A stretch of 63,981 bases of DNA, filler included, from Caldilineae bacterium (lineage in GTDB: Bacteria > Chloroflexota > Anaerolineae > DTLA01), in assembly GCA_037446815.1 (NCBI GenBank). It is 5 parts of 5 records of this genome, joined end to end, with 100 filler letters (N's around TTAATTAATTAA, not from the genome) between each part and the next. Parts side by side here need not be neighbours in the genome. Positions count along the whole stretch, not along the records: positions 1 to 13,335 come from JBBIHX010000070.1; 4 more parts are not named here. One strand, given 5' to 3'. Below, piece after piece: positions 1 to 13,335 of this stretch (position 1 is its first letter; the number at the start of each line of letters is the position of its first letter). A program made the translations under genes and the position numbers. Under the pieces are notes generated by a model that did not search any database, was not told the origin of the DNA, and worked only from the letters and a program-made list of their open reading frames with translations.

Positions 1-64
1 CCCTCTCCCGGCGGGCGAGGGGGCACGGCCCGCGCTTTGGAACCGCCACGCGACAGGCCCCCAC

Positions 65-93
65 TTGACAAATCGGACAAAGTGAGGTATATT
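65..93 (+). promoter_or_regulatory. sigma70-type promoter of csoR-copZ-copA
   Basis: TTGACA (65-70), 17-bp spacer, TATATT (88-93). Confidence 0.8.
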
Positions 94-101
94 ATTGGCG
101 A

Positions 102-124
102 ACCCCACCCCCAGGGGGAGGGGT
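102..124. promoter_or_regulatory. putative CsoR operator
   Basis: ACCCCACCCCC-A-GGGGGAGGGGT, a C-tract/G-tract pseudo-inverted repeat between the -10 and the RBS, typical of CsoR/RcnR operators. Confidence 0.7.
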
Positions 125-134
125 AGGAGGACGT

Positions 135-413
135 ATGGACAAGCAACTCAAGAACGACGTGAAGGCCCGCCTGGCCACCGCCGAGGGACACCTGCGCGGC
201 ATCCAGCGCATGGTGGACGAGGACGCCTACTGCGTGGACATCATCAAGCAAATCCTGGCCGTGCAGCGCGCCCTGGAGCGGGTCAGCGCCCTGGTGTTGG
301 ACGGCCACCTGCACACCTGCGTTACCACGGCCATCCGCGGCGAGGATCCCGCTCGGCGTGAGCAAGTCATCGGCGAACTCATGGACGTCTTTGAGTTGTC
401 CAGAAAACTTTAG
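135..413 (+). CDS. csoR: CsoR/RcnR family copper-sensing repressor
   Basis: RLxxxEGHLRGIQRMV..YC.DI..QI.AV; H-x-H-x-C metal ligands; AGGAGG RBS. Confidence 0.93.
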   Translation: MDKQLKNDVKARLATAEGHLRGIQRMVDEDAYCVDIIKQILAVQRALERVSALVLDGHLHTCVTTAIRGEDPARREQVIGELMDVFELSRKL

Positions 414-425
414 GGAGGATAGACC

Positions 426-632
426 ATGATTGCCAAGACCTTGAATGTGCCCAACATCTCATGCCACCACTGCGTGAACACCATCCAGCGGGAACTGGGC
501 CAGGTGAAAGGCGTGGCCGAGGTGCACGCCGACGTGCAGACGAAGCAGGTCTCCGTGAAGGTGGACTCCCCGGCGACGTTGGAGACCGTGCTGAAGACTC
601 TGCGGGAGATCGGCTACCCGCCGGCGGAGTAG
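426..632 (+). CDS. copZ: copper chaperone (HMA domain)
   Basis: 68 aa with ISCHHC metal-binding motif; lies between csoR and copA. Confidence 0.9.
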   Translation: MIAKTLNVPNISCHHCVNTIQRELGQVKGVAEVHADVQTKQVSVKVDSPATLETVLKTLREIGYPPAE

Positions 633-725
633 AGGCATCGCGTCGCGGAGGCGCGGGGCCGCAGAGAAAGCACCTTTTGCTCTGCGCGCTCTGTGCCTCC
701 GCGGTGGGCAGAAAGTAGGCAGACC

Positions 726-3122
<2,397 letters not shown>

Positions 3123-3138
3123 CGCCGCGCAGGGATAC

Positions 3139-3191
3139 GAAAAACCGCGAATGCGCGCGACTCTGCACGAATCGCGGCATTCGCGGTTTTC
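3139..3191. terminator. bidirectional intrinsic terminator
   Basis: GAAAAACCGCGAATGC...GCATTCGCGGTTTTC inverted repeat between convergent genes. Confidence 0.7.
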
Positions 3192-3208
3192 TTATGCTGT
3201 GTACCCGA

Positions 3209-4609
3209 CTACTTGGGCACTTCGGTTACAATCACGGCTCGGTTGGCTTCCAATTCCGCGGGATCCACGTCCTTCTCGGTCAGGAACAACTCCGGATGGC
3301 CGTGGCAGTTCTTGCAGTCCTGGTTCTGCGGCGTGATCTTCTGGATGTTGTGCACGGTGGCGTACTTCCACGTGGGCACTGAAGCCCAGTTCGGGAGCAT
3401 GTTGTCGCCGTAGTATCCGAAGATGTCTTCCGGCACCGGAATGTGCCGCACCAGGACGTACTCCCACGGGCGGTCGGGCGTCGGACTCGGGTTCTTGCCG
3501 ATCTTGAACGTCATCACCGACGGGTCTAGTTTGCGATATGGCAGTCCTTCCTTGTCCAGACCGACGTGGCAGTTCCAGCAGGACTTGTACGCGCCGGCGG
3601 AGTGGCACACGCGGCAATCCAGTTTGTCGCCGTGGATGTTGTGCTGCATGACCTCGCCCTTGCCGGGCGCGGCATCCGGGTGGCAATCCAGGCACGAAGG
3701 CGCAGGCTTGCCGTCGTAGCGGTGGGCGTACTGCGTGCCGTCGCCGTGGAACTGGGTCATGTTGTGGCACTTGAAGCAATTGACGCCCTTGGTCCAGTGG
3801 ACATCGCCAGGGATGCCGGCGTTCTTGCCCATGAACTCGGGGCCAACGCGCCCGCCGTGGCAGCCCAGGCATGTGTCGCTGAGCGAGACGATGCTCTTGA
3901 CCTGGTGGTCCTTCACGAGGCCGCCATCCGCCGACGTGGGGCGCGAGATGTGGCACTGGCCGCAGGTCGCGTGGCAACTGGTGCAGTGGCGGTTGAAGAT
4001 TTCGGCCTTGGCCGGGTCCTTGAAGTCAAACCCGCGCTGGCTCAGTATGGTGTAGTATCCGTTGATGGTGTAGTGGAGCGACGTGGCCGAGGTCTTGGCG
4101 ATGTCGCCGTGGCAGTTGGCGCAGACGCCGCCCTTGTCGGCAGACGGGTCGCGCACCACGCCCTGGTGGGCCGCCGCTTTGTCATTGGTGTCGGGCTGGC
4201 CGCCATGGCAGCCGATGCAGTTGGGCGTGTTGTGCACATCCTTGAGGAACGTGTCGTCGCCGATGAAGACCTTTTCCCATGCCTCCAACGGAGGCAACTC
4301 GCCCGCTCAGCCCTCGCCTTCGGTCTCGGCCGAGCCGGTCTTCTTGGTTTCGGCCAGTTTCTGGAGCGTCGCGGGGTCGGTATGACACGCCACGCAGTTG
4401 TCCGCGCTGGGGATGGGCGTGGGTGTCGGCGGTACGGGAGTGTTGGTTGGTGCTGGGGTGTTCGTGGGCGGCGGTACAGGCGTATTGGTCGGCGGTACTT
4501 TCGTAGGCACTGTGGTCGGCGTAGGCGTCGCCGCGGCTCCACAGGCCGCCAGGATCAGCACCGTGATCCCAACCAAACCCGCCACCCAAATCAGGGTTTT
4601 GGGTTTCAT
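3209..4609 (-). CDS. multiheme (11 CXXCH) c-type cytochrome lipoprotein, putative selenoprotein (in-frame TGA at 4307-4309, Sec101)
   Basis: ORFs 4307-4609 (LAAC lipobox, PT-rich linker, CVACH) and 3209-4297 (10 CXXCH) are in the same frame, separated by TGA-GCG-GGC-GAG; SECIS-like hairpin follows. Confidence 0.8.
4280..4296 (-). promoter_or_regulatory. putative bacterial SECIS element
   Basis: UGCCUCC-GUU-GGAGGCA, a perfect 7-bp stem whose loop starts with G 18 nt after the UGA. Confidence 0.7.
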
Positions 4610-4662
4610 GGCTTACCTCTCTTCAGGGACTCTTTTGTGCAATCTCTCGGCTAAACGGTTGC

Positions 4663-4698
4663 GCTTCGGGGAATTGCTTCGTGGCAATTCCCCGAAGC
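4663..4698. other. intergenic stem-loop within the operon
   Basis: GCTTCGGGGAATTGC-TTCGTG-GCAATTCCCCGAAGC, perfect 15-bp stem with no U-tract. Confidence 0.6.
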
Positions 4699-4753
4699 AG
4701 GCCTTACCGCGTCAAGACGCCCGGAGGCCAACCGGCGTCTGTGACGGACGAAA

Positions 4754-5863
4754 CTACCGAGCCGCACGCTTGGCGTACAGCGCACTGCCCGTGAACAGGG
4801 CGGCGATGCCGGCGACCAGCACGAGCCAGGTCAGGTTCATCTCGGCGCCGGTAACAGGCAGGGTGGTGGGAGCGGCGCTGCCTTCAACCGGGTAGTCGGG
4901 CGCGGTAGCAACGTCGTACCGCGGCTGCGCCAGGACCTTGTCGTCCTTCGTCCAACCCATCATACCGTACTTGATGTTGCCGGCATCATAGCCCAGGAGG
5001 CCGAGGATGGTGGCCGCGACCATGCCGGTGTGGCCGGTGTAGCAGTAGACCACAACGCGCTTGTCGGGGGGCAACTTGGCCAGGTTCTCGGGCTTCGCGA
5101 TGTCCTTGTAGAAGATGTTGATGGCGCCCGGGATGTGGCCCAGCGCGTAGTGCTCGGCAGTGCGCACGGAGACGATGACCGGGTTGTTGGAGGCGTCGCC
5201 GTCGTTCAGGTTCTCAAAGATGGAATCGGCGGTAACGATGGGGGCCTTGGCCGTGTTCAGCCAGTTGTCGGCTGCGGTGCGGATGATCTCAAAGTCCCCG
5301 CTGGCGCCGGTGGAGACGGTCGGGTACGGATAGGTGGCCGTGGCTTCGTTGACCGTGGTCTCCAACGGGTAGTCGCGCTGATCCGTATCGGGGCCAAAGC
5401 GCTTGGTGGCGAGAACGGTGTCGTTCTTCGTCCAGCCCATGATCCCGAACTTGAGGTTGACGGCGTTGTAGCCCAGGAGATTCAGAATCGTCGTGGCAAT
5501 CTGCCCGGTGTGGCCGGTGTAGCAATAGACCACGATCTGCTTGTCCTTGGGCAGTTTGGCCAGGTTCTCGGGCTTGGCGATCGTCTTATAGGGGATGTTG
5601 ATGGCGCCTGGAATGTGGCCCAGCGCGTAGTGCTCCGCAGAACGCACGCTCACGATAAACGGGTCATTGCTGGCATCCCCGTCGTTCAGCAGCGTGAACA
5701 GCGCGTCGGCGGTGATGACGGGAGACTTGACGGTGGTGAGATACTTCTCCGCCGCGGCCCGAATGACCTCAAAGTCGCCGCTGGGGCCTTCGGCAAGAAC
5801 GGGAGAGACAGCGATGAGCAGGAGAGCTACGGCGAGTAGCAACGACACGACTTTGTTCCGCAT
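4754..5863 (-). CDS. secreted tandem rhodanese (sulfurtransferase) protein with LPXTG-type anchor
   Basis: signal peptide; two domains each with GHIPGAINI and VVYCYTGH; C-terminal LPVTG, TM helix and KRAAR tail; AGGAGG RBS before ATG 5863. Confidence 0.88.
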   Translation of the reverse strand: MRNKVVSLLLAVALLLIAVSPVLAEGPSGDFEVIRAAAEKYLTTVKSPVITADALFTLLNDGDASNDPFIVSVRSAEHYALGHIPGAINIPYKTIAKPENLAKLPKDKQIVVYCYTGHTGQIATTILNLLGYNAVNLKFGIMGWTKNDTVLATKRFGPDTDQRDYPLETTVNEATATYPYPTVSTGASGDFEIIRTAADNWLNTAKAPIVTADSIFENLNDGDASNNPVIVSVRTAEHYALGHIPGAINIFYKDIAKPENLAKLPPDKRVVVYCYTGHTGMVAATILGLLGYDAGNIKYGMMGWTKDDKVLAQPRYDVATAPDYPVEGSAAPTTLPVTGAEMNLTWLVLVAGIAALFTGSALYAKRAAR

Positions 5864-5968
5864 AGACCTTCTTTCCTCCTTGAATGGATTCTTTAGGTGG
5901 TGCAGGATTTCAAAGAACTGGCCTCCGCTGACGCTTGACCGGCGCTGTACGCACGACGGCTTGTGCGT

Positions 5969-5997
5969 ATTGTAACGACTAGGAAAGTATCTGTCAA
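5969..5997 (-). promoter_or_regulatory. sigma70-type promoter of the rhodanese-cytochrome operon
   Basis: minus strand TTGACA (5997-5992), N17, TACAAT (5974-5969). Confidence 0.75.
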
Positions 5998-6237
5998 ATC
6001 TATGGAGCCGCTGCATCCTGTAAACCCCATAAATAAGGGAAACTTATCTATGGCACAATCTGACACAATGTTTTCTTTCCAATGTGGCGCGAAGACGCGG
6101 CAATCCGTCGCGCATGTGGGGACAACGTCGGGGATGTAGCGAACGGCGCGGCGGAGTGCGGCGACCTGTCGCACCTGTGGGGACAACCCTCATCCTTCGG
6201 GCGAGGGTGAGGGTGAGGGGCAGCACGCGCGCACGGC

Positions 6238-6765
6238 CTACGCCAGCCTCTGCTCGCAATTCTCCCGCTGGCCGCAGCGCAGGCACTTCTGCGGCGTCTC
6301 GTGATCGCGGTCGGCGGAACCCCGAGCGCGGGCCTCTCGCATCGCCGCCAGGGTTTCCAGCACGCGCCGACGGAGCGCATCGTCATAGGGAATCTGCACC
6401 GTGGCGTCGTCATAGCGCAGCAAGCCGTAGGGCGGGCGCGCGCCGAACTCCTCCTCCGCCAGCAGGCAGTACGCCGCCAGTTGCAGGACATGGCCCTCGT
6501 AGGGTTCGGCAGGGGCCTGGCCCGACTTCACCTCCACGGGCACGCGCGCGTTTCCCACGCGCACCAGGTAATCGGGTCTGCCGGTGAGGCCGTAGCGGCG
6601 GGAGTACAACGGCTCGCGCGTTCGCTCCCATCGGCCCGTGTCGCCGTACACCAGGCGGCCGCGCGGAAGCCCCGCTGCCTTCCATTGCCCGCGCGCCCAG
6701 AGCCACACGCCCAACCCGAAGATGAGCAGGGCAAGCGCGACGACGATGACAACTGTCGCGGACAT
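6238..6765 (-). CDS. Cas4-like PD-(D/E)XK nuclease, C-terminal part with an N-terminal TM helix
   Basis: GLTGRPDY, VEVKSG and QLAAY motifs; C-terminal CxxC-x5-C; start at ATG 6765. Confidence 0.85.
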   Translation of the reverse strand: MSATVVIVVALALLIFGLGVWLWARGQWKAAGLPRGRLVYGDTGRWERTREPLYSRRYGLTGRPDYLVRVGNARVPVEVKSGQAPAEPYEGHVLQLAAYCLLAEEEFGARPPYGLLRYDDATVQIPYDDALRRRVLETLAAMREARARGSADRDHETPQKCLRCGQRENCEQRLA

Positions 6766-6766
6766 C

Positions 6767-7027
6767 TCACCCTCCCCACAGGCGGGCGATGACCCAGGCG
6801 ACCAACGCCAGGGCGCCCAGAACGGCCAGGGCGATGCCCACGCGCTGGACGACGAGCGCCACGTACACCCTTCTCCCGTGGCGGCGGTGGGATTCGGTGC
6901 CGGCCTCCAAGTCGGCGACGTTGGCCGACGGGAGGCGCAGGACGTGCTCCAGGTACCAGGCGTGAGGGCAGTAGGTGAACTGGCCGATTTCACTGGCCCG
7001 AACCACGTAGCGCGATGATTTGGACAC
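6767..7027 (-). CDS. small membrane protein resembling the Cas4 N-terminus
   Basis: ASEIGQFTYCPHAWY and GTESH motifs plus a C-terminal TM helix; stop lies 1 nt before the next start. Confidence 0.75.
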   Translation of the reverse strand: MSKSSRYVVRASEIGQFTYCPHAWYLEHVLRLPSANVADLEAGTESHRRHGRRVYVALVVQRVGIALAVLGALALVAWVIARLWGG

Positions 7028-7114
7028 TGGACACTCCTTACAAATGAGCGTTCACCGCGGAGGCGCGGCGAGCGCGGGGGCACGCCCCGCTGCCCCTCTG
7101 CCACATACCACCGC

Positions 7115-7164
7115 GTAGGGCAGGTTGTAGGGGCAGCCGTAGGGGCAGGTCTGAGACCTGCCCC
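7115..7164. repeat. GTAG-tagged REP-like palindrome(s)
   Basis: GTAGGGGCAGGTCTGAGACCTGCCCC preceded by partial GTAGGG(G)CAG copies. Confidence 0.6.
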
Positions 7165-7167
7165 ACC

Positions 7168-7698
7168 TCACCGCGGCAGCCCCTGCAATGCGGCGACCGA
7201 CGCGGCCGCGGCGACCGCGCCTAACAGCAGCCCGCCCAGCGCGTCCCCCGCGTAGTGCACGCCCAACGCCACCCGCGCCGCCGCCACGCCCAACGCGCAG
7301 AGCGCCGCCACCGCTGCCACATCGGGGCACGCCGCGCCCGCCACAACCGCAACCGCCGCCACACGCGCCGCGTGGCCCGATGGAAACGAGTAGCGATCCA
7401 GGCGGCGCGAATACAGGCCCGGCGCGTAGCCGTCGGGACGGGGCCGGCGGATAATGCGCTTGATGACGCCGCCCACGATGCCCACCACCAGCACCGCGGC
7501 GGCCATGCGAACCGCAAGCGCGCGCAGCGAGACCCCGCCCCATGCATACAGCGCGATGAGAACGGCGGCCCACAGCGGGCTATCGCCCAGGTGGGCAACG
7601 GCCAAGGCACCCAGGCGAAGCCCGCGCCAGGTGTCGGGAATCCGCAGCCGCTCACTGATGCGGCGATCCAGCGCCGCCGCGGCTTGCCACGGGCTCAT
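7168..7698 (-). CDS. PAP2 family phosphatase
   Basis: KRIIRRPRP, SFPSGH and ARVALGVHY motifs. Confidence 0.9.
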   Translation of the reverse strand: MSPWQAAAALDRRISERLRIPDTWRGLRLGALAVAHLGDSPLWAAVLIALYAWGGVSLRALAVRMAAAVLVVGIVGGVIKRIIRRPRPDGYAPGLYSRRLDRYSFPSGHAARVAAVAVVAGAACPDVAAVAALCALGVAAARVALGVHYAGDALGGLLLGAVAAAASVAALQGLPR

Positions 7699-8489
7699 GC
7701 GCGGTGCGTCTCCATGTAGCGGATGACCATCTCCAATTGGTGGGGCTTGTCCACATCCATCGCCAGTTCCCAGTCGGGCGAGGCGACGACGCGGCCCTCA
7801 ATGCCCAGAATCTCGCTCACGCGGCGCTCCGCGTCGGCGAGGGTGAGGCGGCGGAGCAAGATGGCCAGCAAGAAGCGCGGCCCCAGCACCCGCGCCATCT
7901 TCAGCGCGTCCTTGCGTTGGGCGATGAGGTCGCGCATCATCTGCACCTTCTGCATGGACAGGTCGGAGCGCACCATGAACAGGTCGCCGCCGTCCCAATA
8001 GCCGTCCTTGAGGTGGGCATAACTGCGCCCCGAGCCGGGGAACGCCGCCTCCAGGATGGACTTCTCCACGACCGAGTAGAACAGGTCGCCGCCGCGCTTC
8101 ACGCACGTGTCGGCGAATCGCGCCACGACCGGGCCGGTCAGCAGCGGGATGTCCGACGAGGCGATGAGGACGTAGGGCGAAATGCGCCCCGTTGCGCGGA
8201 GCCAGTCCAGCCCGGCCAGCGTGTTGGCCACGATGTCGCCCTTAGCCGCCAGGTTTGCAACCGGCCCCGAGAAGGGGACCTCGTCCTCCGGCCCCAGCCC
8301 GACGCACACAATGCGGTCCACGCAGCCGCTGGCGCGCAGCGCCTCCTCCACGTACACCACCATCGGCTTCCCCAGAATCGGCAGGAGCGCCTTCCGGGTA
8401 ACCGACGCCCCGGCCAGTAGGGGGTCGGCCTCGCCTGCCGTCGCGCCGGCAAGGATGATCGCGTCCAGGCTCGTGTTCTCCGCGCTCAT
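7695..8489 (-). CDS. MobA-like nucleotidyltransferase (NTP_transf_3)
   Basis: AIILAG, KALL..GKPM, SSDIPLL and MDVDKP motifs; ATGA overlap with the upstream gene. Confidence 0.85.
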   Translation of the reverse strand: MSAENTSLDAIILAGATAGEADPLLAGASVTRKALLPILGKPMVVYVEEALRASGCVDRIVCVGLGPEDEVPFSGPVANLAAKGDIVANTLAGLDWLRATGRISPYVLIASSDIPLLTGPVVARFADTCVKRGGDLFYSVVEKSILEAAFPGSGRSYAHLKDGYWDGGDLFMVRSDLSMQKVQMMRDLIAQRKDALKMARVLGPRFLLAILLRRLTLADAERRVSEILGIEGRVVASPDWELAMDVDKPHQLEMVIRYMETHRA

Positions 8490-9382
8490 AGGGCTTGCAC
8501 CGTGGGGCGGAGATTCAGTTTCTGAAGCATGGCCTCTATCTCCGAATCGGTGAGCGGGCGGCCAAACCCGGCCAAGGCCACCAGGCACGCCTCCATGACA
8601 TTGGTGCCAAAGGTGCGGCCTTCCAGACGCGGCGTCGTCGTGGCCAGGTACCGCACGCCAGCGTTTCGCAGCGTCTCCACGTCGGCGGCCGTGGTGGTGT
8701 TGGTAACCACCACCTTGCCATCCAGGCGCGGCGGCATGTGGCGGTAGATGTAGTTGAAGTCGCCCGCGATGACCGACGCCCACTGATAGTAGCGCTCAAA
8801 CTTGGGGTGATTCTGCCGCTGCTTCTCGCCCGTGGGGTACAACATGCTGAACGGAAGCCGCCCGAAGATGGGCAAGAGCACTGCCGCCAAACGCTTCAGG
8901 TTCTTGATGCCTCGGATGGGGATGGGCAGCCCCAGCGCGAACATCAGGTCGCCGTACACGGTGTCGTAGCCGGCATCGGCGAAGGACTGGGCCATGCCGA
9001 AGCGGTCGGCTGCCGAGGTGATGAGGGCGGTTTTGGGCGAGATGGCGTGGCCGATTTCGGCCTCCACCACCTGCATCACGCGGCGCTCCAGCGTATGCTT
9101 CAGCCCGCCGCCGTCCACTACCGGCGTCTTCTTCACCCCCGCCACCAGCGGCAGCACCGAGTACAGCGGATACGACTTGCTGTCCACGCGCAGCGCCAAA
9201 TCGGTGCCGCCGACCCCGAAGGCATCCACTTGCCCGTCCAGGTCGCGGTACATCTGTTGGGCGCGGGTCATGTCGCCGTCGGTGCCGATGCGCTCTATGC
9301 GGACTCGTTCGCCCAGCAACTCCACCTCAACGGCGTGGTCGCGGTGCGAACTGCCCAGGCTGATGCTCACGACTCTTTTCAT
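8486..9382 (-). CDS. conserved uncharacterised protein (family often labelled 'quinate 5-dehydrogenase')
   Basis: N-terminus MKRVVSISLGSS.RDH, IERIGTDGD, GRTFGTNVMEA; function not established. Confidence 0.7.
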   Translation of the reverse strand: MKRVVSISLGSSHRDHAVEVELLGERVRIERIGTDGDMTRAQQMYRDLDGQVDAFGVGGTDLALRVDSKSYPLYSVLPLVAGVKKTPVVDGGGLKHTLERRVMQVVEAEIGHAISPKTALITSAADRFGMAQSFADAGYDTVYGDLMFALGLPIPIRGIKNLKRLAAVLLPIFGRLPFSMLYPTGEKQRQNHPKFERYYQWASVIAGDFNYIYRHMPPRLDGKVVVTNTTTAADVETLRNAGVRYLATTTPRLEGRTFGTNVMEACLVALAGFGRPLTDSEIEAMLQKLNLRPTVQAL

Positions 9383-9439
9383 GCATGCCCTCCCTGCTGT
9401 CGTTCTATTGCCCCCTCGCCGGCATGCCGCGCGAGCATC

Positions 9440-10732
9440 TCACAGCGCCTCAAGCCGACGGAAGATCACCTCCAGGTTTCGGCGGTAGAAGGCGAGATCA
9501 AACAGGTCGTCCATCTCCTGGGGCGACAGGTGGCGAGAGATGCCGCGCCCCTCCAGCACGTGGCGGAACTCTTTCCCGTGTCGCCAGGCCTCCATCGCCG
9601 CGCCTTGCACCAGAGCATAGGCGTCCTCACGGGACATGCCCTTGTCCACCAAAGCCAGCATGACCCTCTGCGAAGCAAATAACCCGCGAGACAGGGCCAG
9701 GTTGCGAGCCATGTTCTCGGGGAAAACCTCCAGGCCGCGCACCACGCTGACCATCCGATCCAGCATGTAGTCCAGCAGCGAGGTCGCGCCGGGCAAAATA
9801 ATCCGCTCGGCCGAAGAGTGGCTGATGTCGCGCTCGTGCCAGAGGGCGATGTTGTCCAGCGCCGTGGCCAGATAACCGCGCAGCACGCGGGCCAGGCCGC
9901 AAATCTGCTCGGCCTGCACCGGATTGCGCTTGTGGGGCATGGCCGAAGAGCCCTTCTGTCGTTCTCCGAATGGCTCGGCGGCTTCCATGACTTCTGTGCG
10001 CTGGAGGTGGCGTATCTCCGTGGCGAACTTCTCCAGCGAGGCCCCCGTGATGGCGATGGCGGCCAGGAGTTCGGCGTACCGATCGCGCGGCACGATCTGG
10101 CTGGACGCCGGTTCGGGCCGCAGCCCGAGTTTGTCGCACACGTAGGCCTCCACGAAGGGGTCCACGGTCGCATAGGTCCCCACCGCGCCGGAAATCTTGC
10201 CCACGGCCACCGCCTCCCGCGCATGGGTCAGGCGCCGCCGATTGCGGTCCGTCTCAAAGGCCCACTGGGCGAACTTCAGCCCAAGCGTGATGGGTTCGGC
10301 GTGCACGCCGTGGGTGCGGCCCATCATAACGGTCTCCCTGTGGCGCAGCGCCTGCTCCTTCAGGATGCCGATAAGCCGCGTCGCCCCGTCCAGGAGCATG
10401 TCCGTGGCCTGGGCCAGGAGCGCGGCCTGGGCCGTATCCACCACGTCCGACGAAGTCAGGCCGAGGTGGAGGTAGCGTGCGTCGTCGCCCAGGCTCTCGC
10501 CTACGTCGGTGAGGAAGGCCAGCACGTCGTGGCGCAGATCGGCCTCCAGTTCGGCGATGCGCTCGGGGCGGAAGCGGGCGTTGGCACGAATGCGCTCGGC
10601 GGCCTCAGGGGGTATGCGGCCCAACAGCGCCAACGCCTCGCAGACGAGGACCTCCACGCGGAGCCAGTAGCGATATTTGTTCTCCGTCGTCCACAAGTCG
10701 CGCATGGCCGGGCGCGCGTACCGTTCAATCAC
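9440..10732 (-). CDS. purB: adenylosuccinate lyase
   Basis: MIERY start, GRTHGVHAEP, GSSAMPHKRNP, WHERDISHS. Confidence 0.97.
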   Translation of the reverse strand: MIERYARPAMRDLWTTENKYRYWLRVEVLVCEALALLGRIPPEAAERIRANARFRPERIAELEADLRHDVLAFLTDVGESLGDDARYLHLGLTSSDVVDTAQAALLAQATDMLLDGATRLIGILKEQALRHRETVMMGRTHGVHAEPITLGLKFAQWAFETDRNRRRLTHAREAVAVGKISGAVGTYATVDPFVEAYVCDKLGLRPEPASSQIVPRDRYAELLAAIAITGASLEKFATEIRHLQRTEVMEAAEPFGERQKGSSAMPHKRNPVQAEQICGLARVLRGYLATALDNIALWHERDISHSSAERIILPGATSLLDYMLDRMVSVVRGLEVFPENMARNLALSRGLFASQRVMLALVDKGMSREDAYALVQGAAMEAWRHGKEFRHVLEGRGISRHLSPQEMDDLFDLAFYRRNLEVIFRRLEAL

Positions 10733-12006
10733 GCCTGCGCCTCCACGATGGTCTCATCCCGCTCCGGGCCGACGGAGATCATGCGGATGGGCACGCCCAG
10801 GCGGTGCTCCAGGTAGGCGACGTAGGCGCGCGCGGCAGGGGGCAACGCCTGGCGGCTCCGCACATGGGAGATTTCGGCCTTCCAGCCGGGCAGGGTTTCG
10901 TACTCCGGCTCGCACAGGGCCAGGACATGAGTATCTGTAGGGAAGTCCGTGAGCGGCTGCCCCTTGTAGCGGTAGGCCACGCACACTTGAATTTGCGGGA
11001 AAGCGCCCAGCACGTCCAGTTTCGTCAGCGCCAATTCGGTGATGCCGTTGACCTGGATGGCGTAGCGCAGCGCCACCAGGTCCAGCCAGCCGGCCCTGCG
11101 TCGGCGGCCTGTGGTGGTGCCGTATTCGGCGCCGATGACGACCAACTGCTCGCCGATTTCATCGGTCAACTCGGTGGGGAATGGCCCCATGCCCACCCGC
11201 GTGGAGTACGCCTTCGCCACGCCGATGACGCGGCTCACATGGCCCGGGCCGATGCCCAGCCCCGTAAGCGCGCCCCCCGAGACGGGCGACGAACTGGTAA
11301 CATACGGGTAGGTGCCGTGATCCAAATCCAGCAGCGTGCCCTGGGCCCCTTCACACAGGATGGTCTTGCCTTCGGCCAGCCGCCGATGCACCAACTGCAC
11401 CGTGTCGGCGATGTGCGGGCGAAGGCGCGCCGCGTACTCCTGATACTGCAGGATGATGGCGTCCACCCCGGGCTCGGCCAGGCCGTAGGCGCGGAGCACG
11501 GGCGCCTTCTCCTCGGCGCGGGCGCGGATGGTCGCGGCCAGGCGGTCATCGTCCAGCATGTCGCCGACGCGGATGCCCGTGCGGGCGGCCTTATCGGCAT
11601 AGGCGGGGCCGATGCCTCGGCGGGTGGTGCCGATTTTGGAGCCGCCGCGCGCCGCCTCCTGCGCCTCGTCCAGCGCCAGGTGCCAGGGCATGATGAGGTG
11701 GGCCGCGCTGCTCACCCGCACCCGCGAGACATCCACGCCGCGCGCGGCCAGGCCGTCCAGTTCCTGCACCAGCCGCGCCGGGTTGATGACCATCCCGCTG
11801 CCGAGGATGCATTCGGTGCCCGGGTGCAGCACGCCCGACGGGATGAGGTGCAGCGCGAACCGTTCGCCGAGCACCACGACGGTGTGGCCCGCGTTGTCTC
11901 CTCCGCCGTAGCGCGCCACCACGTCCACCTGCGCGGCGAGCAGGTCGGTGATCTTCCCCTTTCCCTCATCGCCCCACTGGGCGCCAACAAGGATAATGGC
12001 AGGCAC
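10729..12006 (-). CDS. purA: adenylosuccinate synthetase
   Basis: GAQWGDEGKGK, EGAQG.LLD.DHGTYPYVTSS, EYGTTTGR; GTG start at 12006. Confidence 0.97.
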   Translation of the reverse strand: MPAIILVGAQWGDEGKGKITDLLAAQVDVVARYGGGDNAGHTVVVLGERFALHLIPSGVLHPGTECILGSGMVINPARLVQELDGLAARGVDVSRVRVSSAAHLIMPWHLALDEAQEAARGGSKIGTTRRGIGPAYADKAARTGIRVGDMLDDDRLAATIRARAEEKAPVLRAYGLAEPGVDAIILQYQEYAARLRPHIADTVQLVHRRLAEGKTILCEGAQGTLLDLDHGTYPYVTSSSPVSGGALTGLGIGPGHVSRVIGVAKAYSTRVGMGPFPTELTDEIGEQLVVIGAEYGTTTGRRRRAGWLDLVALRYAIQVNGITELALTKLDVLGAFPQIQVCVAYRYKGQPLTDFPTDTHVLALCEPEYETLPGWKAEISHVRSRQALPPAARAYVAYLEHRLGVPIRMISVGPERDETIVEAQA

Positions 12007-12034
12007 GGGTGTAGGTCTCCTTCCTGGCGTCGGG

Positions 12035-13219
12035 CTACTCGCCCAACATCCGCGCGGCCAGGGCCGCATACACGCGCGCCGCCGCGACTAGGTCATCCAC
12101 CTTGACCTGGTCATCCACTGTGTGGGCCAGCGTCTCATCGCCCGGGCCGAACCCGACCGTGGGGATGCCGGCAACGCCCATGGTATAGACCCCATCGGTA
12201 GAGAAGGCCCAGCGCTCCAGGCGCGGGCGGTAGCCCAGCGTCTGCCTCACTGTCTGGGCGACCGCCTGCACCAGTGGATGATCCTCGGGCACAACCCACG
12301 CCGGATAGGAATCCCGCACGTGGGCGCGGTAGCCCGTGTAACTCACGATGTCCCACTCGCTCACGGCAACGTCCGCCTTCATGCGCTCCCGGGCCACGAT
12401 GTGCTGAATCTCGGCGAGCGCCTTGGCCTCCGTCTCGCCCAGGGTAAGCCGCCGGTCTAGGTAGAACGTGCACGCGGCCGGGATGGCGTTGCGGCTTCCC
12501 GCCGTGCTCTCAATCTGGGTAACGGCCAGCGTGCCGGGGCCCAGGAACGGATCGGACATGAACTTGAGGGAAAGGAGTTCGGTCTCAAAGATGATGCGGG
12601 CAGCGGCGTTGATGGCGTTGCGGCCCTGTTCGGGCGAGCAGGCATGGCACGCGCGCCCGTGGGTGGTAACCCGAATCTCTACGCGTCCCCGCTGGCCTCT
12701 GGACACGTGCAGGTTCGTCGCCTCGCCCAGCACGACGAAGTCGGGACGGATGCCTTCCTCCTCAATGAGCACCTTCATCCCAAGTCCTTCGGCGGGCTCC
12801 TCCTGCACGACGCCCACGAGGTACAGCGTCCCCTTCAGGCGCGGGGCATGGGCCAGAATGGCGGGCGCGGCGTAGGCCATGGCCGCCAGCGCGCCCTTCA
12901 TGTCCACCGCCCCCAAGCCGTATAGGACGCCGTTCTCCAGTTCGGCGGCGTAGGGATCGCGCTTCCACTGCTTGAGGTCGCCCGGCCCTACGGTGTCCAT
13001 GTGCCCGTTGTACAGCAGGATGGGCGGCTCGCCGCTGCCCAGTCGCCCCACCACGTTGCCGATGCGATCCGTGAAGACGTCCTGCCAGCCCAGCCGCCGC
13101 ATCTCCTCGGCCAGCCGCTGGGCCACCGCGCCCTCTTGCCCAGAGGGGCTTGGGATGTGAATCAGTTCCCGCGCAAATTGCACAAGCGCGTCTCGGTCAA
13201 TTTCCATCGCTCGGATCAT
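12035..13219 (-). CDS. M20 metallo-hydrolase, YgeY-like
   Basis: GHMDTV, GAVDMKG, QEE, GEAT, GQRGR, WAFSTDG and AHT motifs. Confidence 0.85.
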   Translation of the reverse strand: MIRAMEIDRDALVQFARELIHIPSPSGQEGAVAQRLAEEMRRLGWQDVFTDRIGNVVGRLGSGEPPILLYNGHMDTVGPGDLKQWKRDPYAAELENGVLYGLGAVDMKGALAAMAYAAPAILAHAPRLKGTLYLVGVVQEEPAEGLGMKVLIEEEGIRPDFVVLGEATNLHVSRGQRGRVEIRVTTHGRACHACSPEQGRNAINAAARIIFETELLSLKFMSDPFLGPGTLAVTQIESTAGSRNAIPAACTFYLDRRLTLGETEAKALAEIQHIVARERMKADVAVSEWDIVSYTGYRAHVRDSYPAWVVPEDHPLVQAVAQTVRQTLGYRPRLERWAFSTDGVYTMGVAGIPTVGFGPGDETLAHTVDDQVKVDDLVAAARVYAALAARMLGE

Positions 13220-13232
13220 CGTTCCCCTCGCA

Positions 13233-13335
13233 GATTCGGTTGCATCTTGTGTTGGTCTGCACCGCGCGCCGCCTCCCCACTCTGTCATGCTGAGCCGAAG
13301 GCGAAACGCCCTCGCCCTTCGGGAGAGGGCCGGGG
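13233..13335 (+). repeat. truncated MITE/REP composite at the contig end
   Basis: GATTCGGTTGCATCTTGTGTTGGT left end, CTCTGTCATGCTGAGCCGAAGG and CCCTCGCCCTTCGGGAGAGGG, all found at other loci. Confidence 0.7.

Follow-up and report, generated by a model that had tools for sequence, protein, structure and literature searches.

We analysed a stretch of 63,981 nucleotides from a Caldilineae bacterium (assembly GCA_037446815.1), hereafter called the window, in which five contigs are joined by N runs. Its positions 1-13335 represent contig C70 (JBBIHX010000070.1) of the host metagenome-assembled genome (MAG; 3.19 Mb, 265 contigs, 93.6 % complete), and this contig carries the gene of a predicted multihaem c-type cytochrome with one selenocysteine (Sec) residue, here termed the selenocytochrome. 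Two minus-strand open reading frames (ORFs), 4307..4609 (100 aa, ATG start) and 3209..4297 (362 aa, TTG start), share one frame and are separated by one TGA. Reading through this codon yields a product of 466 aa that contains 11 CXXCH motifs and reads ...ETEGEG-[TGA]-AGELPPLEAWEK, with the single TGA at codon 101 (4307..4309, minus strand). The whole gene of the 11-haem protein has 466 codons and occupies 3209..4609 on the minus strand, from the ATG at 4609-4607 to the TAG stop at 3211-3209. Shortly behind the UGA lies a hairpin of the Sec insertion sequence (SECIS) type, UGCCUCC-GUU-GGAGGCA with the loop GUU (4280..4296, minus strand), and the TTG start of the downstream ORF falls within its stem. 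An earlier reading of the sequence alone (the sequence-only reading) had described the two ORFs in one frame around the TGA, the 466-aa read-through product with 11 CXXCH motifs, the perfect hairpin with its loop G 18 nt after the UGA and a downstream ORF with only a TTG start, and all of these features are present. A gene for a double-rhodanese protein lies directly upstream on the same strand, with a spacer of 144 bp.

The predicted protein falls into four parts, all encoded on the minus strand. The N-terminus consists of MKPK, a hydrophobic stretch and LAAC at residues 20-23, which we take to be a lipobox, so that 4541..4609 is read as a putative signal peptide with Cys23 at its end. Two of the more remote Chloroflexota orthologues have similar lipobox-like ends (LIAGC and LFGC in loci L023 and L027; L numbers are our locus handles), and Desulfobacterota orthologues carry ordinary signal peptides. 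A Pro/Thr-rich linker (4397..4540), variable in length and sequence among orthologues, leads from the putative lipid anchor to the haem domain. It is followed by an N-terminal module (residues 72-122, 4244..4396), which comprises haem 1 (CVACH, residues 72-76), a linker that is acidic and variable, and the Sec loop, where PPLEAWEK is conserved. The core (residues 123-466, 3212..4243) bears haems 2-11 and, in a predicted model compared by structural alignment, resembles octahaem tetrathionate reductase (OTR) in its fold.

The host genome encodes the complete machinery for Sec insertion, in line with the expectation of the sequence-only reading. The genes selA (587.5 bits), selB (358.3 bits), selC (tRNA-Sec, 69.9 bits against a cut-off of 47) and selD (372.8 bits) all exceed their curated cut-offs, and ARAGORN assigns the tRNA as SeC with the anticodon tca. 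Neither selA nor selB has an internal stop. The selD gene (contig C13:14206-15138, L016) contains one in-frame TGA of its own; it is thus probably of the Sec type and a further indication of UGA being decoded as Sec in this organism. Among the stops of 37 long, non-overlapping ORFs in the window, TGA is the commonest (15, followed by TAG with 12 and TAA with 10). Because TGA ends so many long ORFs and selA and selB lack internal stops, the codon is not reassigned genome-wide. As a separate observation, ARAGORN reports an unusually long tRNA-Trp (cca, 101 nt; L001 566-666) about 0.8 kb from the tRNA-Sec gene on the opposite strand.

Conservation of the TGA was followed in two steps. A six-frame search of 41 genomes, namely 40 relatives and the window's own genome, gave strong matches (E <= 1e-120) in 10. 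Nine of these are full length with exactly one in-frame TGA each, which lies within the same motif in all nine translated orthologues; the tenth ends at a contig edge at residue 166. The wider scan took one genome per species and covered the best 80 of 159 relatives by alignment and two patterns, one of which (YKxCxxCH) lies far from the Sec site, and many loci were found through it. In this set, 78 of the 80 loci reach the Sec site, and all 78 read GEG-TGA, 46 by regular expression and 32 by direct reading; L070 and L086 begin downstream of the site and are uninformative. Cys occupies the Sec position in none of the 78 core-clade loci, and the motif GEG-U-[GA][GA] is invariant. Judged by record title, the carriers span at least six phyla and include Anaerolineae and other Chloroflexota, Dehalococcoidia, several Desulfobacterota orders, Phycisphaerae, Gemmatimonadetes, a KSB1-type 'Deferribacteres' MAG and Eisenbacteria. 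One further carrier is titled as a Thorarchaeota MAG (L089), where a binning error is possible. A sequencing error is excluded, as the TGA recurs in separate assemblies from many phyla.

The hairpin is conserved as well. Its stem begins with the 11th base after the TGA, leaving a 10-nt spacer, and the loop G (4289) lies 18 nt past the A of the TGA. We aligned 77 distinct 60-nt segments, each with 9 nt ahead of the TGA and 48 nt behind it, without gaps. In the 7-bp helix, 94.4 % of the 539 cells pair, as against 39.5-52.7 % when the partners are slid by one to three columns, and changes on both sides occur in five of the seven pairs (63 cells). None of 500 shuffles matched the observed pairing or covariation score, with the caveat that the structure was drawn from one of the aligned sequences and that kinship inflates the shuffle test; the slid-partner control is fairer, and it is clear. 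Most Chloroflexota have the stem GCCUCC/GGAGGC and some ACCUCC/GGAGGU, while one group of Desulfobacterota has GGCUCC/GGAGCC and another GGAGCC/GGCUCC. The encoded peptide shifts with the stem (LPPLEA, VAPLEP or VEPLAP). What is conserved is the RNA, in part at the protein's cost: the stem is kept while the peptide switches. Loop positions 1 (G) and 3 (U) are invariant across the 77 sequences. The 11-nt spacing and the small G/U loop presumably resemble the minimal SECIS of E. coli fdhF. Taken with the machinery and the conserved codon, the comparative data lead us to conclude that the locus holds almost certainly one gene, not two, and that its product would be a real selenoprotein.

Standard annotation splits the gene, as the sequence-only reading had predicted. 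A word-indexed search of 5.8 billion clusters found 516 proteins at E <= 1e-20 among 8000 scored candidates, and all 120 matches listed span only 73-78 % of the read-through protein, that is, the portion after the TGA. A profile search of 1.84 billion representatives returned 1607 matches at E <= 0.001, of which 213 reach E <= 1e-30. Among the 150 profile matches listed, 42 enter the alignment at profile positions 41-53, directly past the Sec column, with one of their own first nine residues. Those matches of the word-indexed search that bear a name are labelled hypothetical protein, cytochrome c3 family protein, nitrate/TMAO reductase-like tetrahaem cytochrome or else thiosulfate/3-mercaptopyruvate sulfurtransferase. 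The last of these is a JGI label that stands on many fragments without a rhodanese domain in the precomputed Pfam list; the name may stem from fused forms.

The 33 motif residues at the 11 haem sites, like the Sec column, do not vary in an alignment of 56 sequences. Outside the motifs, nine His residues and K342 are invariant, and H208 and H323 are kept in 50 and 48 of the 56 sequences, respectively. The count of distal ligands does not settle whether Sec ligates a haem, because 11 His suffice for 11 haems. Pfam recognises Cytochrom_c3_2 (43.9 bits) and Cytochrome_C7 (39.9 bits) in the selenocytochrome, and no NCBIfam model meets its cut-off on it. Haem site 8, a CXXCH in the window protein (residues 306-310), is an unusual CX4CH (CTESGCH, CTQEGCH) in L024, L027 and their relatives (alignment columns ~375-380). 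Motif-rich orthologues owe one to seven additional CXXCH to C-terminal extensions: 13 motifs are found in L052, L056, L058, L059, L083, L093, L094, L101, L114, L116, L118, L123, L124 and L127, 12 in L075, and 18 and 17 in L088 and L095. The extended proteins of L052, L094, L114 and L118 end in a hydrophobic stretch and a basic tail, like a membrane anchor.

In the wider family, 36 of the 150 profile matches listed span the Sec column, and all 36 were aligned with ten core-clade members. The sequence-only reading had expected homologues to carry TGA or Cys at the site; beside the uniform TGA of the core clade, 10 of these 36 distant full-length relatives carry Cys at that column, and in 4 more a Cys stands no further than two columns away. 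The others have Trp (4, and 3 more one column earlier), Tyr (3), Met (2), His (1, and 3 more within three columns) or other residues (16). One Trp entry, known as a protein record only, reads GEG-W-AGE and resembles a TGA printed under code 4. Cys-type relatives thus exist, at greater distance only. Each of the four residues Cys, His, Met and Tyr is a possible ligand of haem iron, and their occurrence in the column gives no more than a hint that the Sec position may face a haem iron.

The AlphaFold2 model of residues 66-466 has a mean pLDDT of 89.8 (~80 over the Sec loop) and a pTM of 0.85. Foldseek against the PDB gave a weak top match to OTR of Shewanella oneidensis (1sp3; E 0.02, probability 0.82), and a wide search with VIA-align placed 1sp3_A first with Z 9.4 and a root-mean-square deviation of 5.1 A over 271 aligned residues (model 58-401). 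All other structural matches, to MtrA, HAO, OcwA, an S-layer undecahaem cytochrome, ONR, MccA and NrfA, stay at Z <= 4.3. A PDB sequence profile search found nothing below E 0.002; the best match was an unrelated-looking 278-aa cytochrome c (28pb). On the predicted model, the core with haems 2-11 is a distant structural relative of OTR, and haem 1 with the Sec loop is an N-terminal addition.

The gene upstream of the selenocytochrome gene (4754..6016, minus strand, longest ORF 420 aa) matches Pfam Rhodanese in two stretches (1.1e-36), and both rhodanese domains carry a CYTGHTG loop. The true start is likely Met52 at 5863. A signal peptide follows Met52, and codons 1-51 (5864-6016) look non-coding, being basic, devoid of a signal peptide and containing a promoter-like site. 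This site, at 5969..5997 on the minus strand, is a sigma-70-like TTGACA-17-TACAAT that agrees with the consensus in 11 of 12 positions, a consensus match only, and lies upstream of Met52. The C-terminus, LPVTG followed by a hydrophobic stretch and KRAAR, has the form of a sortase signal; with two sortase genes in the host genome, the double-rhodanese protein is probably anchored on the cell surface by sortase, judging from its sequence. The 144-bp spacer to the cytochrome gene holds a perfect 14-bp inverted repeat with a 6-nt loop and no T-run after it (4664..4697), and no promoter-like site was found in this spacer. The two genes may therefore be co-transcribed, because the promoter match precedes Met52 and none lies in the spacer.

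This linkage extends across phyla. A same-strand rhodanese gene lies within 800 nt in 56 of the 78 loci, upstream in 35 and downstream in 21. By title, the upstream loci are all Chloroflexota except the Thorarchaeota-titled L089, and the downstream loci belong to Desulfobacterota, Phycisphaerae, Gemmatimonadetes, KSB1 and Eisenbacteria. Four loci have a rhodanese gene on the opposite strand within 2.2 kb. In 12 of the 78 loci, rhodanese domains run in frame into haem 1 and form fusions. Pfam confirmed the rhodanese in all 11 sampled loci from several phyla. Other neighbours are a cytochrome b561-type membrane protein, directly downstream in L116 (5535-6197) and about 1.1 kb downstream in L066 (6351-7421), a 4Fe-4S protein near L072, and sigma-54 regulators near L096 and L107. 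The b561 and 4Fe-4S neighbours of some loci fit a respiratory electron supply, and the b561-type protein is a candidate quinol-linked electron donor in the L066 and L116 lineages.

The closest precedent in kind is MccSep (ExtKL, GSU2937-2936) of Geobacter sulfurreducens, a periplasmic pentahaem tetramer (Sci Adv 2026, PMC13510729). In this protein, Cys239 ligates haem 2, and Sec325, which lies in a DGUP loop of an Ig-like domain at the C-terminus, is indispensable to polysulfide reduction and to the sulfur respiration of Geobacter (PMC13510729). Like MccSep, the selenocytochrome is predicted to be an exported multihaem c-type cytochrome with one Sec from an in-frame UGA, is split into two ORFs by annotation, has a SECIS-like hairpin directly downstream and is associated with a rhodanese-like protein; each of the two is found among Desulfobacterota and many uncultured anaerobes. 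The rhodanese-like lipoprotein of the MccSep organism is ExtH, as it appears in the reference list of PMC13510729. The differences are considerable. The selenocytochrome has 11 haems instead of five, its Sec stands near the N-terminus in GEG-U-GG before haem 2, and it has no conserved non-motif Cys that could ligate an active haem. Moreover, MccSep has Cys-type clades, whereas the core clade described here has none; the OTR-like fold and the frequent in-frame rhodanese fusions also set the selenocytochrome apart. An identity with MccSep/ExtKL was rejected, as the model NF040886 gave no match at E <= 0.1 (cut-off 250 bits), and ExtH was ruled out for the window rhodanese, which scores 19.8 bits on NF040901 (cut-off 200). 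A genome-wide search with NF040886 likewise passed over the selenocytochrome gene. Its best match, contig C4:55179-55907 (L128), is partial (76.9 bits, profile 155-405) and has no internal stop; it may encode a distant MccSep-like cytochrome without Sec.

OTR (1sp3, TIGR04315), an exported enzyme with several haems that works on S-S bonds, is the best structural match for residues 123-466. Membership in the OTR family was likewise rejected (TIGR04315, no match at E <= 0.1; cut-off 375 bits). OTR has eight haems, whereas the core of the selenocytochrome has ten and one more haem N-terminally, and the Sec loop lies in the N-terminal extension beyond the OTR-aligned part. The title of one reference credits OTR with an unusual lysine haem ligand, which has no established counterpart in the selenocytochrome. 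A table in a 2026 review lists NF040886, NF041027 and TIGR04315 as cytochrome-related selenoprotein families, with Sec-containing members for TIGR04315 (PMC13188914). None of the three matched the selenocytochrome in the NCBIfam search. In L025 (1-2706, the same place as L068), a continuous frame with 21 haem motifs fuses a module of the OTR family (182 bits to TIGR04315, truncated at the contig end) upstream of the GEG-U module; the OTR-family module has its own in-frame TGA (..MMSTY-U-APP..), and this protein would hold two Sec residues.

Three further systems bear on the comparison. The thiosulfate or persulfide chemistry of TsdA, SoxAX and DsrJ takes place at a chalcogen side chain that sits on or beside a c-type haem, a model that applies if Sec101 ligates a haem. 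Unlike the selenocytochrome, these are small dihaem or trihaem proteins that use Cys, and no sequence or fold relation to them was found in the PDB profile and structural searches. Sud of Wolinella is a periplasmic rhodanese-type polysulfide-sulfur transferase that serves polysulfide reductase. Like the window rhodanese, it is exported, and it carries sulfur to a reductase of sulfur respiration; that reductase is a molybdoenzyme, unlike the cytochrome partner here. In Dethiobacter, an Otr/SirA-like cytochrome beside rhodanese genes is reported to be upregulated on thiosulfate (PMC10376724); it is a candidate relative of the selenocytochrome. In searches of the literature on selenocysteine and multihaem cytochromes and on rhodanese selenoproteins, with the supplements of PMC13510729 and PMC13188914 excluded, the GEG-U family did not turn up. 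The family is unannotated and, within the literature searched, unpublished; its kind has had a precedent since MccSep.

We consider it somewhat probable that the selenocytochrome is a redox enzyme of sulfur (or selenium) chalcogens that works with a rhodanese. As a whole, the explanation we favour, with moderate confidence, is a rhodanese-fed reductase of sulfane S-S bonds on the membrane's outer face, with Sec101 as the nucleophile; that the reaction runs reductively has, taken by itself, a little less than an even chance. The proposed substrate, direction and position of Sec relative to haem draw on the rhodanese partner, the OTR-like fold and the MccSep precedent, and the biochemistry of MccSep, polysulfide reduction with a Sec nucleophile beside a haem, is the best available model by analogy. 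UGA101 would be decoded by SelB and tRNA-Sec, guided by the hairpin that starts 11 nt downstream. The product would be exported, anchored to lipid via Cys23, kept off the membrane by the Pro/Thr linker and loaded with 11 c-type haems, and the upstream-encoded double-rhodanese protein would be its working partner. The active-site Cys of the rhodanese would bear a sulfane sulfur, as a persulfide or polysulfide possibly derived from thiosulfate or tetrathionate. The Sec101 selenolate would then attack the S-S bond and form an Se-S adduct at or on a haem, which electrons from the haem chain would reduce under release of sulfide.

Because a second conserved Cys is lacking, the chemistry must differ from that of MccSep. 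Sec101 may either sit on a haem iron or act beside an open haem site. The sequence-only reading had proposed Sec101 as a haem ligand or a redox-active residue of a surface-anchored enzyme; it mentioned neither the neighbouring rhodanese gene nor MccSep. It is possible, but rather doubtful, that Sec101 is the distal axial ligand of a c-type haem, giving a natural His/selenolate-ligated haem and a reactive centre like that of TsdA and SoxAX. If so, the selenolate would leave the iron, take the sulfane sulfur from the fused or adjacent rhodanese and be re-reduced via the haem chain, and Sec101 alone would do what MccSep divides between its haem-ligating Cys and the neighbouring Sec. His/selenolate-ligated haems are known from engineered proteins only.

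Several results weigh against the proposed reductase. The decoding of Sec, the haem content and the activity of the 466-aa protein are predictions from sequence. The window hairpin on its own has a minimum free energy of -11.5 kcal/mol compared with -9.8 +/- 2.1 for shuffled sequences (z = -0.84), and 40 of 200 shuffles were as stable. As this energy is not significant, the case for the SECIS element rests on the comparative evidence. An Rfam scan of 3100-4800 gave no match at E <= 1, a null result that is uninformative either way because no curated model exists for such an element. The 56 aligned sequences have no conserved Cys outside the haem motifs besides the Sec column; lacking a second conserved chalcogen residue, the MccSep mechanism is not directly transferable. 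By sequence, the resemblance to OTR lacks significance (E = 0.087 in the PDB profile search; Foldseek E = 0.02), and since OTR is catalytically promiscuous (PMC13510729), an OTR-like fold does not fix the substrate. Rhodanese is missing from 18 of the 78 loci, 15 of which have one flank cut, whereas three (L056, L063, L082) lack it with both flanks present. Apart from the rhodanese, no electron donor or partner is conserved among the 11 sampled loci, and none is present in the window.

One alternative is that the protein serves mainly as an extracellular or periplasmic electron-transfer wire, in which Sec101 is an axial ligand that tunes one potential and the rhodanese has no direct role. Eleven closely spaced haem motifs, weak Pfam matches to cytochrome c3/c7 and MtrC-type domains, and structural neighbours at Z ~4.3 such as MtrA, OcwA and the S-layer undecahaem cytochrome suit such a wire, as do those of the 36 distant relatives whose Sec column holds a residue able to ligate haem (Cys 10, His 1, Met 2, Tyr 3). 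We nevertheless regard it as unlikely, since the 12 fusions and the 56 same-strand adjacencies across phyla are hard to account for unless the two share a function, the retention of a costly Sec with no replacement by Cys favours catalysis over the tuning of a potential, and an enzyme, OTR, leads the fold matches by far.

The enzyme could instead act on selenium or tellurium oxyanions, in selenite or tellurite reduction or selenium trafficking, with the rhodanese as a selenium carrier. The selenocytochrome weakly matches the NCBIfam models ExtN, ExtO and ExtM of the Geobacter selenite/tellurite reduction operon, and the window rhodanese weakly matches selenium-related rhodanese families; at 34-36 bits, the former are far below their cut-offs, and all such matches are far under cut-off and lie on generic haem motifs. 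MccSep reduces selenite too, but prefers polysulfide, with a five-fold lower K0.5 (PMC13510729). Selenium is scarce relative to sulfur in most habitats, whereas the family is very widespread (the 516 clusters at E <= 1e-20), and we give this alternative a small chance.

A similarly improbable alternative reverses the direction: in the manner of TsdA and SoxAX, the enzyme would oxidise thiosulfate, sulfide or persulfide and feed the electrons into the haem chain. His/Cys-ligated haems oxidise thiosulfate in TsdA and SoxAX, and MccSep possibly does the reverse (PMC13510729). The carriers (Anaerolineae, Dehalococcoidia, Desulfobacterota) are, going by the record titles, mostly anaerobes, which speaks against oxidation; the adjacent cytochrome b561 of some loci is compatible with either direction. 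Rhodaneses also act in sulfur oxidation pathways.

That the protein is no selenoprotein at all, because the TGA is a genuine stop of two genes or of a pseudogene, a mistake of sequencing or a codon recoded genome-wide, is highly improbable: the non-significant energy of the lone hairpin, the treatment of TGA as a stop by gene callers and the Trp at or beside the Sec column in 7 of 36 distant entries (protein records only), as a code-4 call prints TGA, are outweighed by the TGA that 78 of 78 loci, assembled independently and drawn from at least six phyla, have at this very codon, an upstream part with haem motif 1 in frame everywhere, a downstream ORF that would have no export signal and a TTG start inside the hairpin, the ordinary use of TGA as a stop in the window beside selA and selB free of internal stops, and the complete Sec machinery.

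If the rhodanese-fed selenocytochrome is real, it represents a second lineage of selenium-dependent multihaem enzymes, without detectable sequence relation to MccSep. The GEG-U family is far more widespread in Chloroflexota (Anaerolineae, Dehalococcoidia) and occurs also in Desulfobacterota, Phycisphaerae, Gemmatimonadota and other uncultured groups. As the databases searched truncate the gene, metabolic reconstructions of these bacteria, which are abundant in sediment and subsurface, miss a probable enzyme of sulfur respiration and a need for selenium. With a strict Sec in its core clade, its rhodanese fusions and no second chalcogen residue, the family would make a clean study system, suited to asking how selenium and haem cooperate in S-S cleavage and whether a selenolate-ligated haem occurs naturally. 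For annotation, a simple rule follows: GEG-TGA-GG and then a hairpin.

The surroundings of the two genes hold a few further features. A 14-bp inverted repeat with a flanking A-run and T-run (3141..3190) looks terminator-like in both directions and sits between the convergent cytochrome and P-type ATPase genes. The terminator scan reported neither of the inverted repeats that flank the cytochrome gene; the loop of the one at 3141..3190 (22 nt) exceeds the limit of the scan. The ATPase and a nuclease gene of the window are not kept beside the sampled orthologues. The former (693-3122), convergent to the cytochrome gene, encodes a heavy-metal P-type ATPase with two HMA domains, and the latter (6238-7104) encodes a PD-(D/E)XK or Cas4-like nuclease.

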